DNA from: Escherichia coli | GTDB lineage: Bacteria > Pseudomonadota > Gammaproteobacteria > Enterobacterales > Enterobacteriaceae | Length of the DNA: 64,000 nt | Assembly: GCF_036507355.1 (NCBI RefSeq) | Contig: NZ_AP027877.1 | Direction: 5' to 3' (one strand) | Shown here: one piece after another, positions 35,579-58,055 of the stretch | Numbering within the stretch: the stretch's first letter is position 1 | How the letters are laid out: each line of letters opens with the position of its first letter | Position numbers and translations under genes: made by a program | Notes under the pieces: generated by a model | Told to the model about the DNA's origin: nothing | What the model saw: only the letters and a program-made list of their open reading frames with translations | Databases searched by the model: none

Positions 35579-35609
35579 ATCGCCTCCCATTAACTATTGC
35601 CAGCTACAA

Positions 35610-35625
35610 GCAATAATTGTGCCAG
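35610..35625 (-). promoter_or_regulatory. sigma-54 (-24/-12) promoter for the hyp operon
   Basis: Minus strand reads CTGGCAC-AATTA-TTGC, about 30 nt upstream of hypA. Confidence 0.6.
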
Positions 35626-35737
35626 TGTTGATTATCCCTGCAGTGAATAATGTCGATGATGTCGAAATGACACGTCGACACGGCGACGAAATTCACCAAA
35701 ATCTTAAAAATCGCTTTAATAACAATAAATTGAAAGT

Positions 35738-35752
35738 TGGCACAAAAAATGC
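35738..35752 (+). promoter_or_regulatory. sigma-54 (-24/-12) promoter for the hyc operon
   Basis: TGGCAC-N5-aTGC (GG-N10-GC) about 40 nt upstream of hycA. Confidence 0.6.
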
Positions 35753-35789
35753 TTAAAGCTGGCATCTCTGTTAAACGGGTAACCTGACA

Positions 35790-36251
35790 ATGACTATTTG
35801 GGAAATAAGCGAGAAAGCCGATTACATCGCACAGCGGCATCGTCGCCTACAGGACCAGTGGCACATCTACTGCAATTCGCTGGTTCAGGGGATCACGTTA
35901 TCGAAAGCGCGCCTGCATCACGCCATGAGCTGCGCGCCGGACAAAGAACTCTGTTTCGTCCTTTTTGAACATTTTCGTATTTACGTCACCCTTGCGGATG
36001 GCTTTAACAGCCACACCATCGAGTATTACGTCGAAACAAAAGAGGGCGAAGACAAACAGCGGATTGCGCAGGCGCAACTGAGCATTGACGGCATGATTGA
36101 TGGCAAGGTCAACATCCGCGATCGCGAACAGGTTCTGGAACACTATCTCGAAAAAATCGCTGGTGTTTACGACAGCTTATACACCGCCATTGAAAACAAT
36201 GTGCCGGTGAATTTAAGCCAACTGGTAAAGGGACAAAGCCCGGCAGCATGA
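35790..36251 (+). CDS. hycA: formate hydrogenlyase regulatory protein HycA
   Basis: 153-aa ORF at the head of the hyc operon. Confidence 0.9.
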   Translation: MTIWEISEKADYIAQRHRRLQDQWHIYCNSLVQGITLSKARLHHAMSCAPDKELCFVLFEHFRIYVTLADGFNSHTIEYYVETKEGEDKQRIAQAQLSIDGMIDGKVNIRDREQVLEHYLEKIAGVYDSLYTAIENNVPVNLSQLVKGQSPAA

Positions 36252-50289: not shown

Positions 50290-50441
50290 AAATCTTACAG
50301 AACTGTTCTGGCATCAAAGGAATTCCCGGAAATATTCGTAGAATACGGAGCGGGCGGTATCGCCGACCTGAGACTGCCGGATACGACGCTGTCGTGTCCG
50401 GCAGGGCGGGTTACGCAATTCATGATGGCGGGAATAACTCA

Positions 50442-52694
50442 ATGGCAAAAAACACATCTTGCGGTGTCCAACTGCGTATTCGTGGCAAAGTGCAGGGCGT
50501 CGGTTTTCGTCCGTTTGTCTGGCAACTGGCACAGCAATTAAATCTTCACGGCGATGTCTGTAATGACGGCGATGGCGTAGAAGTCCGGCTGCTGGAAGAC
50601 CCGGAAACGTTTCTTGTTCAATTGCATCAGCACTGTCCGCCACTGGCGCGTATTGATAGCGTCGAGCGTGAGCCGTTTATCTGGTCACAACTGCCCACCG
50701 AGTTCACTATCCGCCAGAGCGCGGGAGGTGCCATGAATACGCAAATTGTCCCGGATGCCGCTACTTGCCCTGCTTGCCTTGCCGAAATGAATACCCCAGG
50801 CGAACGGCGTTATCGTTATCCGTTTATCAACTGTACCCACTGCGGCCCGCGTTTCACCATTATTCGCGCCATGCCTTACGACCGCCCGTTTACCGTAATG
50901 GCGGCGTTTCCGCTGTGTCCAGCCTGTGATAAAGAGTACCGCGACCCGCTCGATCGTCGCTTCCACGCCCAGCCGGTGGCCTGCCCGGAGTGTGGCCCAC
51001 ATCTTGAATGGGTAAGTCATGGTGAACATGCGGAACAAGAGGCGGCATTACAGGCGGCTATCGCACAGTTAAAAATGGGCAACATTGTCGCCATCAAAGG
51101 GATTGGCGGATTTCATCTTGCCTGCGATGCACGTAACAGTAACGCGGTGGCGACACTTCGGGCGCGCAAACATCGCCCGGCGAAACCGCTGGCGGTCATG
51201 TTGCCAGTGGCTGACGGTTTACCAGACGCTGCGCGCCAGTTGCTTACCACGCCCGCCGCGCCGATTGTGCTGGTGGATAAAAAATACGTTCCTGAGCTTT
51301 GTGATGATATCGCCCCTGGCCTTAACGAAGTCGGGGTAATGTTGCCTGCGAACCCGCTCCAGCATTTGCTGTTACAGGAACTGCAATGCCCGCTGGTGAT
51401 GACCTCTGGCAACCTGAGCGGTAAACCACCGGCTATCAGCAACGAACAGGCGCTGGCGGATTTGCAGGGCATTGCCGACGGATTCTTGCTACATAACCGC
51501 GACATCGTGCAGCGGATGGATGATTCAGTGGTGCGCGAAAGCGGCGAAATGCTGCGCCGTTCGCGAGGGTATGTACCGGACGCGCTGTCTTTGCCTCCGG
51601 GCTTTAAAAATGTTCCGCCTGTGCTGTGTCTCGGCGCGGATCTGAAAAATACCTTCTGCCTGGTGCGCGGTGAACAAGCGGTGTTGAGCCAGCATCTGGG
51701 CGATTTAAGTGACGATGGCATCCAGATGCAGTGGCGCGAAGCGTTACGCCTGATGCAAAACATCTACGATTTCACCCCGCAATACGTTGTGCATGACGCA
51801 CATCCTGGCTATGTCTCCAGCCAGTGGGCGCGCGAAATGAATCTGCCGACGCAAACGGTACTGCATCATCATGCCCATGCAGCGGCGTGTCTGGCAGAGC
51901 ATCAGTGGCCGCTGGATGGCGGTGATGTCATTGCTTTGACGCTCGACGGTATCGGTATGGGGGAGAACGGCGCTTTGTGGGGCGGCGAGTGCCTGCGGGT
52001 GAACTATCGCGAATGTGAGCACCTGGGCGGCTTGCCTGCAGTGGCGCTTCCGGGTGGCGATTTGGCGGCGAAGCAGCCGTGGCGTAACCTGCTGGCGCAG
52101 TGCCTGCGCTTTGTGCCGGAGTGGCAGAATTACCCTGAAACGGCAAGTGTGCAACAGCAAAACTGGAGCGTACTGGCGCGGGCCATTGAGCGTGGAATTA
52201 ACGCGCCGCTGGCGTCATCGTGTGGGCGGGTGTTCGATGCAGTGGCGGCGGCACTGGGCTGTGCGCCAGCCACGTTAAGTTATGAAGGTGAAGCGGCTTG
52301 TGCTCTGGAGGCGCTCGCAGCCTCATGCCACGGAGTGACGCATCCGGTGACAATGCCGCTGGTGGACAATCAACTGGATCTCGCCACTTTCTGGCAGCAG
52401 TGGCTGAACTGGCAGGCACCGGTTAATCAACGCGCGTGGGCGTTTCATGATGCGCTGGCGCAGGGTTTTGCCGCGTTGATGCGTGAGCAGGCCACGATGC
52501 GTGGTATCACTACGCTGGTATTTAGCGGCGGGGTTATTCATAACCGTTTGCTGCGTGCACGTCTGGCGCATTATCTCGCTGATTTCACATTGCTCTTTCC
52601 ACAGAGTTTACCGGCGGGTGATGGCGGTTTGTCTCTGGGGCAGGGGGGTATTGCTGCGGCGCGTTGGTTAGCGGGTGAAGTCCAGAACGGATAA
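50442..52694 (+). CDS. hypF: carbamoyltransferase HypF (hydrogenase maturation)
   Basis: ORF 50394..52694; start at internal [25 protein letters not shown] (750 aa); acylphosphatase, two zinc-finger and YrdC/Kae1-like regions. Confidence 0.95.
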
Positions 52695-52822: not shown

Positions 52823-53956
52823 CTACATCGGCAATGTTTTCAACAATCCAAATGCCTCTTTCATCCGATCCTCACTGACCACAAAGGCGCGAAGCTGGTC
52901 AGCATCGTCAACGCCGCGCGCCACCATTCCCTGGCGTTCGGTATTAATTTGCCAGCGTAAATCCTGACGCTGGGTTTCGCCTGCCAGATGCAGCGGTAAT
53001 TCCGGCGTTTTGATTTTCACCAGCATCGCCGGTAGTTTCAGTGGCGTGTTATTGCCGAGAAGATTTTTTGCCAGCACCATCGCGCTAAGTTGAATCGGCT
53101 GCAGGAACGGCAGTACCTGACCGTTAATTTCCGCGCAATCGCCCAGCGCGTAAATATCGGCATTACTGGTTTGCAGATAACTATCGGCGCAAACGCCGCG
53201 ATTAATCGTCAGCCCGGCGCGTCGTGCCAGGGCGGTTTCCGGGCGCAGTCCGGTGGCGGCAATTACCGCATCCACTTCGATACTGCGCTGGCGGTCCAGC
53301 GTTGCCAGAATGCCAGAATCCGTTTTTTCTAGCCCCTGCAACTGAGATTTCAACAGCAGATGAACGCCCATCTCCGTCAACCGATGCTGCAAGCGGCTGC
53401 TTACTTCCGGTGGCATTAACGACGCCAGAATACTGGCAGCGTTGTCGATTAGCGTAACCATTTTGCCTGCACGACAAAAATCCATCGCCAGTTCGCTACC
53501 AATCAAACCACCGCCAACAATCAACACGCGTCGGGCATCCCGCAGTTGCGTTTCACAGGCGCGATACTCTTGCTGACTATTTAACGTCAGCATTAACTCA
53601 CGCCCAGGCACAGGCGGGACAAAGGCACTGGCACCGGTTGCCAGTACTAGCTTGTCGTATTGCCACTGATTATTCTGGCTTTTCACCACACGGGCTTCGG
53701 CATCGATATCCGTCACCCAGGTTTGTGGAAACAGGCGCAGATTAAACTGCTCGGCAAATTCACCCGCCGTCTGGCGGGTAAGGTCATCGGCACGTTGCCC
53801 CTGACTGATAACATGGCTGAGATCAGGTTTGTTGTACTCATCCATGCTGTCGGCGGCAATCAGGGTTAATGGAATAGTTGCGTCCTGTTTGCGAATATTT
53901 TTCACCAGTTGGCGGGCGGCGAAGCCCGAACCAATGATCACAATGCCGTTACTCAT
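52823..53956 (-). CDS. norW: NADH:flavorubredoxin reductase
   Basis: 377-aa [28 protein letters not shown], pyridine nucleotide-disulfide oxidoreductase fold. Confidence 0.95.
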
Positions 53957-55392
53957 TTTGCCTCCGATGCCAGTTCTTCAAAGACGTCTTTGCCGAGGGA
54001 GCATTCCGGGCAGAGGAAGTTATCCGGGACTTCACTCCACGGCGTTCTTGGCGCAACGTCCTGCATTGGCTCGCCTTTTGCCGGATCGTAAATCCACTGG
54101 CAGACGCTGCACTGCATCCGTGGGCCGAGGTCAGCCGTCGTGGTGGCAGAGGTTTCTTCTTTAACTACCGCATTCACCGTGCTCTGCGGCAGCGGCGCGA
54201 GCGCCCACTGACGGGCGATTTCGCGACCGTGTTCACGGCATAACTCCAGAGCGTCCTGGTCTGGTCGCCATTTCGCTTTCAGGCTAAGCGACATTTCGAA
54301 ACCCGCATCCTGCAGGCGCGTGGAAAGACGATCCACCGCACCGCCGCTCCAGCCGTGAGATCCGAAAGCACTGGCGCGTTTGTTACGGAAGCGTAATCCG
54401 GTCATCTCCTCCACCAGCCCGGCGATTTTCGGCATCATCACATTATTCATCGTAGAAGTGCCGACCAGCACGCCTTTTGAGCGGAAGACATTGGTCAGGA
54501 TTTCGTTTTTATCGCTTCGGGCGACGTTGAAAATTTTCACCGCCACGCGTGGGTCGGTTTCCGCAATCCCCTGGGCGATAGCGTCAGCCATCATGCGGGT
54601 GTTATTCGACATGGTGTCGTAGAAAATGGTGATTCTGTCTTCCTGATAATCAGCCGCCCATTTCAGGTACAGCTCGACGATTTGCGTCGGGTTATCGCGC
54701 CATACCACGCCGTGAGAGGTCGCTATCATATCGACTGGTAAGTTAAAGCCCAGGATCTCGGTAATTTTCGGCGTTACCAGGCGGCTGAACGGCGTAAGGA
54801 TATTGGCGTAGTAACGCTGGCACTGCTCAAAAAGCTCCGTCTGATCCACTTCATCGTTGAACAGATGCTCGTCGCAGTAGTGCTGACCGAAAGCATCGTT
54901 ACTGAACAGCACCGCGTCGCCTGTCAGGTAAGTCATCATGCTGTCCGGCCAGTGCAGCATTGGTGTTTCGACAAAAATGAGCTGTTTGCCGTTGCCGATA
55001 TCCAGCGTGTCGCCAGTTTTCACCACATTAAAATTCCACTCCGGATGATGGTGATGACCATTTATCGAGTCGATAGCGTTGGCTGTACAGTAGATCGGCG
55101 TATCGGGAATTTGCGCCATCAGTTCGGTCAGCGCCCCGGCGTGGTCCTCTTCAGCATGGTTAATCACGATGTAATCGATATCCGCCAGATCGATTTCATT
55201 ACGCAGGTTCTGCACAAATTCGCGGCTGAATTTATGGTCGACGGTGTCGATCAGCACGTTTTTTTCTTCGCGGATGAGGTAGCTGTTGTAGCTGCTGCCG
55301 CGCAGCGTTTTATATTCCGTGCCGTGAAAATCACGCACTTCCCAGTCACGTTGACCCACCCAATGAATGTTATTTTTCACCACAATAGACAT
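53953..55392 (-). CDS. norV: anaerobic nitric oxide reductase flavorubredoxin
   Basis: 479-aa ORF with metallo-beta-lactamase-like, flavodoxin and C-terminal rubredoxin (CSVCQWIYD ... CPECS) regions. Confidence 0.95.
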
Positions 55393-55440
55393 AGCAACCT
55401 CAATTTATTCAGCGTGTTCTAAAAAGATGTCTTGCTAATT

Positions 55441-55456
55441 GCAGATTGCGTGCCAG
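55441..55456 (-). promoter_or_regulatory. sigma-54 (-24/-12) promoter of norVW
   Basis: Minus strand reads CTGGCAC-GCAAT-CTGC, about 50 nt upstream of norV. Confidence 0.65.
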
Positions 55457-55510
55457 TTTTTTATCTGATTGTTTTTACTCTATAAATAAAATTATGCTCA
55501 TTAATGAGTA

Positions 55511-55566
55511 GTCAAAATGACTATCAATCAAATGGTCGATATGACAATATCTATAGTCAAATTGAC
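55511..55566. promoter_or_regulatory. three NorR enhancer boxes (GT-N7-AC)
   Basis: gtcaaaatgac (55511..55521), gtcgatatgac (55535..55545), gtcaaattgac (55556..55566) in the norR-norV spacer. Confidence 0.7.
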
Positions 55567-55578
55567 AGTGAGGCAAAG

Positions 55579-57093
55579 ATGAGTTTTTCCGTTGATGTGC
55601 TGGCGAATATCGCCATCGAATTGCAGCGTGGGATTGGTCATCAGGATCGTTTTCAGCGCCTGATCACCACGCTGCGTCAGGTGCTGGAGTGCGATGCGTC
55701 TGCGTTGCTACGTTACGACTCGCGGCAGTTTATTCCGCTTGCCATCGACGGGCTGGCGAAGGATGTACTCGGTAGACGCTTTGCGCTGGAAGGTCATCCA
55801 CGGCTGGAAGCGATTGCCCGCGCGGGTGATGTGGTGCGCTTTCCCGCAGACAGCGAATTGCCCGATCCCTATGACGGTTTGATTCCAGGGCAGGAGAGTC
55901 TGAAGGTTCACGCCTGCGTTGGTCTGCCGCTGTTTGCCGGGCAAAACCTGATCGGCGCATTGACGCTCGACGGAATGCAGCCCGATCAGTTCGATGTTTT
56001 CAGCGATGAAGAGTTACGCCTGATTGCCGCGCTGGCGGCGGGAGCGTTAAGCAATGCGTTGCTGATTGAGCAACTGGAAAGCCAGAATATTCTGCCGGGC
56101 GATGCCGCTCCATTTGAAGCGGTGAAACAGACGCAGATGATCGGTCTGTCGCCAGGCATGACGCAACTGAAAAAAGAGATTGAGATTGTGGCGGCGTCCG
56201 ATCTCAACGTCCTGATCAGCGGTGAGACGGGAACCGGTAAGGAGCTGGTGGCGAAAGCGATTCATGAGGCCTCGCCACGGGCGGTGAATCCGCTGGTCTA
56301 TCTCAACTGTGCCGCACTGCCGGAAAGTGTGGCGGAAAGTGAGTTGTTCGGGCATGTGAAAGGAGCGTTTACTGGCGCTATCAGTAACCGCAGTGGGAAG
56401 TTTGAAATGGCGGATAACGGCACGCTGTTTCTCGATGAGATCGGCGAGTTGTCGTTGGCATTGCAGGCCAAGCTGCTGCGGGTGTTGCAGTATGGCGATA
56501 TTCAGCGCGTTGGCGATGACCGCAGTTTGCGGGTCGATGTGCGCGTGCTGGCGGCGACTAACCGCGACTTACGCGAAGAGGTGCTGGCAGGGCGATTTCG
56601 CGCTGACTTGTTCCACCGCCTGAGCGTGTTTCCACTTTCGGTGCCGCCGCTGCGTGAGCGGGGCGATGATGTCATTCTGCTGGCGGGGTATTTCTGCGAG
56701 CAGTGTCGTTTGCGGCTGGGGCTCTCCCGCGTGGTATTAAGTGCCGGAGCGCGAAATTTACTGCAACACTATCGTTTTCCGGGGAACGTGCGCGAACTGG
56801 AACATGCTATTCATCGGGCGGTAGTGCTGGCGAGAGCCACCCGCAACGGCGATGAAGTGATTCTTGAGGCGCAACATTTTGCTTTTCCTGAGGTGACGTT
56901 ACCGCCGCCAGAAGCGGCGGCGGTGCCCGTTGTTAAGCAAAACCTGCGTGAAGCGACAGAAGCGTTCCAGCGTGAAACTATTCGTCAGGCACTGGCACAA
57001 AATCATCACAACTGGGCAGCCTGCGCGCGAATGCTGGAAACCGACGTCGCCAACCTGCATCGGCTGGCGAAACGTCTGGGATTGAAGGATTAA
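55579..57093 (+). CDS. norR: sigma-54-dependent nitric oxide-responsive activator NorR
   Basis: ORF 55504..57093; start at internal [18 protein letters not shown] (504 aa); GAF, AAA+ ([14 protein letters not shown]) and HTH regions. Confidence 0.95.
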
Positions 57094-58055
57094 ATAATCC
57101 CGGCCTGATAGAAATCCTGCAGGTTAATTGCGCCGACGAGTTTGCCGTTTTCATCTACCACCGGTGCGGCAGTGATTTTGCGCTTCATCAGGATCTCTTT
57201 GGCGTCGATGGCGCGGCTTTGTGCCTGTAATGTGGTACCGCCTGTCGTCATCGCTTCATTAACTGGCGTGGTGAGTGCGCCGCCGCCAACCAGCCAGCGA
57301 CGTAAATCGCCGTCGGTAAAGACGCCTTGTGCCTGTTGTTGAGCGTCACATACCGCCACCAGCCCCAGACCGGTGCGGCTGAGTTCCAGCATCGCATCCA
57401 TCACGCTGGCGGTTAACGCTACCTGTGGGATAGCGTCATCACGACGCATCAGATGATGCACTTTATTCAGCAAGCGAGCGCCCAGTGCCCCGGCTGGGTG
57501 GGAGCGGGCAAAATCTTCTTCATTAAATCCGCGCGCCTGCATGACCGCCATCGCCAGCGCGTCACCCATCATCAGGGTATTGACGGTGCTGGAGGTCGGC
57601 GCAAGGTGCATCGGACAGGCTTCGCGTTCTACCGAAATATCCAGCACCGCTTTCGCCGCCAGGCCCAGCGGTGACGTCGGTTTGCCGGTCATCGCCAGCA
57701 GCGCGATAGATTTATCTTCCAGACGCGGAATAATCAGATCCAGTTCCTTCGCGCCACCGGAGTAAGAGATAAACAGCATCACATCGCGGCTTTCAATCAT
57801 CCCCAGATCGCCGTGCAGTGCTTCTGCCGGATGGACAAAAAAAGCCGGTGTGCCGGTACTGGCAAGCGTTGCGGCGATTTTCTTACCAATGTGGCCCGAT
57901 TTGCCAATTCCCGAAACCACCACTTTGCCTTCGCAGTGCAGGATGATATTGGCGGCGCGAACAAAATCATCGCCCAGACGTTCCGGTAAACGGCTTGCTT
58001 CCTGCAATTCCAGCATTAACGTCTGACGTCCCGCGTTCAGTAGTGCTTCACTCAT
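57090..58055 (-). CDS. gutQ: D-arabinose 5-phosphate isomerase
   Basis: 321-aa ORF with SIS and tandem CBS regions. Confidence 0.93.

Follow-up and report, generated by a model that had tools for sequence, protein, structure and literature searches.

The norV-norR spacer of a non-K-12 Escherichia coli strain carries the known NorR enhancer and the norVW sigma-54 promoter

Introduction

The divergent genes norV and norR of Escherichia coli are separated by a short spacer, which raises the question whether this spacer holds the complete control region through which NorR activates norVW, and whether NorR also acts from there on its own gene. According to the literature, the iron centre of the NorR GAF domain senses NO and frees the AAA+ domain, which then remodels the sigma-54 holoenzyme, and NO-, NorR- and RpoN-dependent transcription from the norVW promoter has been reported. 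In a gSELEX study the norV-norR spacer was the single NorR target in the genome (Shimada et al.). The promoter, pNorV, already serves as an NO biosensor promoter in synthetic biology. The K-12 norR-norVW region with NorR sites 1-3, IHF and the sigma-54 promoter was reportedly described by Gardner and colleagues in 2003, by Tucker and colleagues in 2004 and by Justino and colleagues in 2005.

Here, we analysed this spacer in a stretch of 64,000 nucleotides of E. coli DNA, called the window throughout. A first-pass annotation, made from the letters of the window, had found in the spacer three GT-N7-AC boxes upstream of a minus-strand CTGGCAC-N5-CTGC element, with the third box about 12 bp before the norR start codon. 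It read this arrangement as the architecture of NorR-dependent norVW activation and predicted autoregulation of norR. A motif scan recovered all of these elements where they had been placed, correct to the base. A complete sigma-54 control region can thus be recovered from raw sequence at base-level accuracy.

The norV-norR spacer and its flanking genes

Positions 55393-55578 of the window are exactly the 186-bp norV-norR spacer of an E. coli chromosome, with a GC content of 32%. A 401-bp piece around the spacer has 100% matches in many E. coli genomes, and 5425 of 5426 complete genomes contain it; RefSeq labels the two genes on identical E. coli DNA norR and norV. The genes of the locus are:

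50394-52694, plus strand: hypF (NCBIfam equivalog)
52823..53956, minus strand: norW, NADH:flavorubredoxin reductase, second gene of the regulated operon (NCBIfam equivalog NF003437, 682 bits, positions 1-377 of 378)
53953..55392, minus strand: norV, anaerobic NO reductase flavorubredoxin, 479 aa, start codon ATG at 55392 (NCBIfam equivalog NF003954, 1044 bits, positions 1-479 of 479; RefSeq)
55579..57093, plus strand: norR, NO-sensing sigma-54 enhancer-binding protein, 504 aa (NCBIfam equivalog NF003451, 825 bits with a cut-off of 476, positions 2-503)
57090-58055, minus strand: gutQ (NCBIfam equivalog)

The gene adjacent and divergent to the promoter, norR, encodes an activator of the GAF-AAA+-HTH type, and norV and norW are the full-length NO-detoxification targets of the promoter. 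A residue check of NorR showed the GAFTGA motif at 262 and all residues of the iron centre (R75, D96, D99, C113 and D131). The norV gene is intact and free of the internal deletion that has been described in some EHEC O157 strains.

The mechanically called norR reading frame begins at an upstream in-frame ATG (55504) and is 529 instead of 504 amino acids long; read from there, it would run through all three NorR boxes. We rejected this start codon. The ATG is present in only 18 of the 79 species compared below, the GAGG before 55579 is conserved, and both the RefSeq and the NCBIfam alignments begin at 55579.

The three boxes coincide with published NorR sites

The three boxes and the ribosome-binding site next to them are located as follows (the boxes carry no strand):

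55511-55521: NorR enhancer site 1, GTCAAAATGAC; covered by the Site1 primer and the 21-bp NorR1 oligo; centre at -87 from the inferred norV start
55535-55545: NorR enhancer site 2, GTCGATATGAC; covered by the Site2 primer; centre at -111
55556-55566: NorR enhancer site 3, GTCAAATTGAC; covered by the Site3 primer; centre at -132 from the inferred norV start and -18 from the norR ATG
55570..55573, plus strand: norR Shine-Dalgarno GAGG, at least 95% conserved across 79 species

All three boxes fit the pattern GTC-N5-GAC, which is tighter than the loose GT-N7-AC. From the end of box 3 to the norR ATG at 55579 the distance is exactly 12 bp, as the first-pass annotation had estimated, and this gap, AGTGAGGCAAAG, holds the Shine-Dalgarno GAGG.

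In the study of Tucker et al. (2010, PMC2831303), GT(N7)AC was changed to GG(N7)CC at each NorR site, and the primers were listed. Their Site1, Site2 and Site3 mutagenic primers map to 55502-55529, 55527-55552 and 55549-55578, respectively, and they depart from the window sequence nowhere but at the engineered bases, GT>GG and AC>CC. The 21-bp oligo named NorR1 in the same paper matches 55505-55525 exactly. Since the primers and the oligo map onto the boxes, these are, judged by their sequence, NorR sites 1, 2 and 3 as defined by experiment, in the same order. The published NorR methylation footprint extends from -137 to -84. If norV transcription starts at 55429, both limits coincide with G residues on the norV sense strand, one in box 1 (-84, position 55513) and one in box 3 (-137, position 55566); given this start, the published footprint fits the boxes.

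The norVW sigma-54 promoter and the probable norV leader

Downstream of the enhancer with respect to norV, the following elements were assigned:

55457..55477, no strand: T-rich conserved block, TTTTTTATCTGATTGTTTTT, between promoter and enhancer, taken from the conservation map
55440..55456, minus strand: norVW sigma-54 promoter, CTGGCACGCAATCTGCA, an exact match to the ChIP-seq motif OS25, with GG at 55454/53 and GC at 55442/41
55393..55429, minus strand: inferred norV 5' leader of 37 nt, with the start at 55429 and a Shine-Dalgarno GAGG at 55401-55398

The minus-strand sigma-54 element CTGGCACGCAATCTGC reads CTGGCAC-GCAAT-CTGC from 55456 down to 55441 and points toward norV. It is found letter for letter in the sigma-54 ChIP-seq site OS25, which lies 37 bp from norV (Bonocora et al. 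2015) and is marked 'confirmed' in EcoCyc. The 17-mer of OS25 occurs once in the window, at 55440-55456 on the minus strand. We infer that norV transcription starts at 55429, because this position reconciles the footprint limits and puts GG at -25/-24 and GC at -13/-12. With this start the leader is 37 nt long, which equals the norV distance of 37 in Table 1 of Bonocora et al.

IHF has been reported to bind between the norV start site and the NorR sites (PMC2831303). The best match to the IHF consensus is weak (7 of 9 positions) and lies at 55462-55474 on the minus strand, inside the T-rich block. This block (55457-55477) is likely the IHF bending region.

The pattern TGGCAC-N5-NTGC occurs in only four places of the 64-kb window; besides the norVW promoter these are the hycA promoter, the hypA promoter and a position inside hycA. 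The hypA and hycA sigma-54 promoters are located at 35609-35625 (minus strand) and 35737-35753 (plus strand), and their motifs are identical to the ChIP-seq sites OS28 and OS27, respectively. The element inside the hycA coding sequence is a TGGCAC-N5-CTGC element, TGGCACATCTACTGC, at 35859-35873 on the plus strand and in the same orientation; this string is absent from the main text of Bonocora et al. (2015).

Conservation across Enterobacterales

A scan with the NorR protein, taking one genome per species, yielded 80 Enterobacterales loci with NorR proteins that are 78-99% identical. A divergent norV could be read in 78 of the 80 loci, and the comparative set consists of 79 distinct spacers including the window, which is a larger comparison than that of the early papers. 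GT-N7-AC is kept at site 1 in 78, at site 2 in 79 and at site 3 in 78 of the 79 spacers. In the spacers with three boxes, the start-to-start spacing of sites 1 and 2 is always 24 bp (77/77), that of sites 2 and 3 is 21 bp with a single exception (76/77), and in 73 of 77 the norR ATG follows site 3 at a distance of 12 bp.

Altogether, the conservation islands in the 79 species are the three boxes, the TGGCAC core (at least 95% conserved), the T-rich block at 55457-55477 and both ribosome-binding sites, while the rest of the spacer is divergent. Positions 55479-55508 are essentially unconserved, and the spacer is 179-192 bp long in the 78 loci. Tight length combined with an unconserved stretch suggests that selection acts on the distance or the phasing between enhancer and promoter rather than on the sequence.

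The norV -12 element differs in many Enterobacterales other than Escherichia (loci L006-L080), which have CTTGA instead of CTGCA at the positions aligned to 55441-55445. The GC of the -12 element is thereby changed to GA: its G is at least 95% conserved and its C less than 60%, and the -24 TGGCAC is invariant. Since many genera have TTGA rather than TTGC or CTGC at the aligned -12 position, the norV promoter consensus is, as read from the alignment, looser outside Escherichia; the window is not affected by this.

A chance cluster and a fourth box as alternatives

GT-N7-AC is a short and degenerate motif, and the boxes could be a functionless chance cluster in AT-rich intergenic DNA. The loose motif alone is indeed weak evidence: the window holds 191 of them, with up to four per 186 bp outside the spacer, and three copies per 186 bp were reached in 0.3-1.5% of first-order Markov simulations. 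The tighter GTC-N5-GAC also shows no enrichment across the window (13 found, 11.6 expected). However, all three boxes fit this tighter pattern, and the only 186-bp segments with three such boxes are those over the norV-norR spacer. Three copies were obtained in none of 200,000 simulations, and the Poisson probability for three per 186 bp is approximately 1e-7 to 5e-6. The boxes are moreover retained at almost constant spacing in 78-79 of the 79 species, in contrast to the divergent sequence around them, and they coincide with sites that have been mutated and footprinted. The chance that the cluster is accidental is therefore negligible, and this explanation is already refuted by the conservation and the published mutagenesis.

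The opposite question is whether the enhancer is larger than three sites. The norV coding sequence contains another perfect box, about +80 from the promoter:

55345-55355: fourth perfect box, GTCACGTTGAC, over norV codons G13-Q14-R15-D16

This box might also bind NorR and help DNA wrapping or act as a roadblock. It fits GTCA-N3-TGAC, of which the 64 kb contain five copies, three of them within 222 bp here, and DNA flanking the sites stimulates the NorR ATPase (Tucker 2010). Several observations speak against a fourth site. No more than 26 of the 79 species retain the box; its loss occurs at the wobble base of Gly13, and the conserved G-Q-R-D codons of norV fix its other positions. The published 266-bp fragment, which is fully stimulatory, corresponds to 55349-55614 and cuts the box, and the protected region in the published footprint runs only from -137 to -84. 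On the basis of its low retention, the wobble-base loss and the cut in the 266-bp fragment we rejected the box as a member of the enhancer; a role in activation is highly improbable, and the box looks like a coincidence of coding sequence.

Activation of norVW

The spacer is thus almost certainly the native E. coli norR-norVW control region, with a leftward sigma-54 promoter and a three-site NorR enhancer centred at about -87, -111 and -132. This assignment is built on the observed identity of the elements with published ones, on their conservation and on the identities of the genes. The architecture that the first-pass annotation had recognised is borne out, since its elements are NorR sites 1-3 and OS25, and its genes are equivalogs of NorR, NorV and NorW. 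The distances of the site centres are typical of enhancers that act by looping.

In the mechanism that these elements point to, NorR would bind each of the GT-N7-AC inverted repeats, as described in the literature, and the three sites would scaffold a higher-order NorR oligomer, which is probably a hexamer. IHF is expected to bend the AT-rich DNA between enhancer and promoter, so that the oligomer could reach the sigma-54 holoenzyme in the closed complex at 55456-55440. As long as NO is absent, the GAF domain of NorR would block the AAA+ domain; binding of NO to the non-haem iron of the GAF domain would release it, and ATP hydrolysis would open the promoter for transcription of norVW. Activation, ATPase activity and open-complex formation depend on all three sites, in vivo as well as in vitro (PMC2831303), because together the sites scaffold the ATPase-active oligomer. 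Among the sequence, conservation and literature comparisons made, no evidence against this activation model was found.

The spacer is a textbook NorR enhancer with the norVW sigma-54 promoter and as such already known. It is among the best-characterised bacterial enhancers, and its recovery carries little weight as a discovery. Other proteobacterial NorR regulons (norAB of Ralstonia eutropha, hmp of V. cholerae and P. aeruginosa, hcp under Vibrio NorR2) have the same tandem GT-N7-AC repeats and a sigma-54 promoter next to norR, and negative autoregulation has been shown or proposed for them. They differ in their targets, which are hmp, norB, hcp and nnrS, and Vibrio NorR2 in addition has an extended consensus, GATGT-N7-ACATC. 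With NifA-nifH, NtrC-glnAp2 and FhlA-hyc/hyp, the latter also encoded in this window, the locus shares upstream activator sites at about -80 to -140, a bend and a -24/-12 promoter, together with an AAA+ activator carrying GAFTGA and IHF-assisted looping. What sets NorR apart from these systems is a strict requirement for three sites in ATPase activity and oligomer assembly, and direct sensing of NO via the iron centre of its GAF domain.

Regulation of norR

The first-pass annotation had also predicted that norR is autoregulated. The geometry, with site 3 located 12 bp before the ATG, and the V. cholerae orthologue support this prediction. Because site 3 ends so close to the ATG, any norR promoter overlaps or precedes NorR-occupied DNA, and since only the ribosome-binding site lies between site 3 and the ATG, the polymerase has to initiate on or read through DNA occupied by NorR. 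NorR bound at site 3 would repress norR independently of NO. Based on our analysis, the most likely mode is a negative, NO-independent autoregulation of norR, and site 3 is the probable operator for it. NorR of V. cholerae represses its own promoter independently of NO, and the same negative autoregulation has been proposed for NorR2 (Rodionov et al.).

It could be argued that the enhancer is close to norR only as a by-product of the compact divergent layout and that it activates norVW, while NorR does not regulate norR at all. A consensus scan located no plus-strand sigma-70 promoter for norR, and a positional scan across 79 species gave no independent conserved candidate, since its recurrent hits are NorR half-sites. 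Furthermore, the direct autoregulation experiment was done in V. cholerae, whose locus differs. Yet the centre of site 3 is only 18 bp from the ATG with nothing but the ribosome-binding site between them, and a 12-bp gap that is kept in 73 of 77 species argues against a by-product. A negative autoregulation of norR of about threefold is reportedly known from E. coli itself, from work by Hutchings and colleagues in 2002. The gSELEX paper names norR as well as norVW as genes under the control of NorR in E. coli (Shimada et al.). Taken together, an enhancer without effect on norR is unlikely, and autorepression is the preferred reading. A further possibility is that the norR core promoter is itself built from NorR half-sites, the TGACA arm of site 2 providing a -35-like ATGACA and an arm of site 3 a -10-like GACAGT at a distance of 17 bp. 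In that case NorR would be in competition with the sigma-70 polymerase for these very bases, and the norR transcript would be nearly leaderless. ATGACA-17-GACAGT scores at least 5.0 in 59 of the 79 species, and in 30 species it ranks first. This recurrent candidate is made of NorR half-sites and its signal is therefore confounded by the conservation of the boxes; in addition, the conserved GAGG ribosome-binding site downstream of GACAGT speaks against it. We regard such a half-site promoter as very improbable.

The scan also gave a sigma-70-like sequence on the other strand, TTGTCA-16-GATAGT at 55547-55520 (minus strand), which is directed toward norV and overlaps with sites 2 and 1. It reaches consensus level only, and the single hit equals the expectation from shuffled sequences (1.0).

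Variation within E. coli

The K-12 norR-norVW region is the same locus, with identical boxes, spacing, promoter motif and gene order. The window, from an E. coli strain other than K-12, carries a few SNPs that are synonymous or located in the spacer and shows no functional difference to K-12. Over the aligned span of 208 bp the two differ by one base, T55498C, which is outside all elements.

The 66-bp segment with the three sites is identical in 3608 E. coli records and 95-99% identical in 1815 others; rows sampled from the 95-99% band have one mismatch each. All E. coli variants that were inspected are located outside the boxes, as is A55530C, a variant of an O157 strain. One larger change was seen in E. 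coli AHM8C160RI (locus L083), which carries a 14-bp tandem duplication, TTGCAGATTGCGTG, between 55438 and 55439, on the start-site side of the -12 element. The duplication leaves one intact copy of the promoter on the enhancer side; the initial transcribed sequence is changed and the leader is longer.
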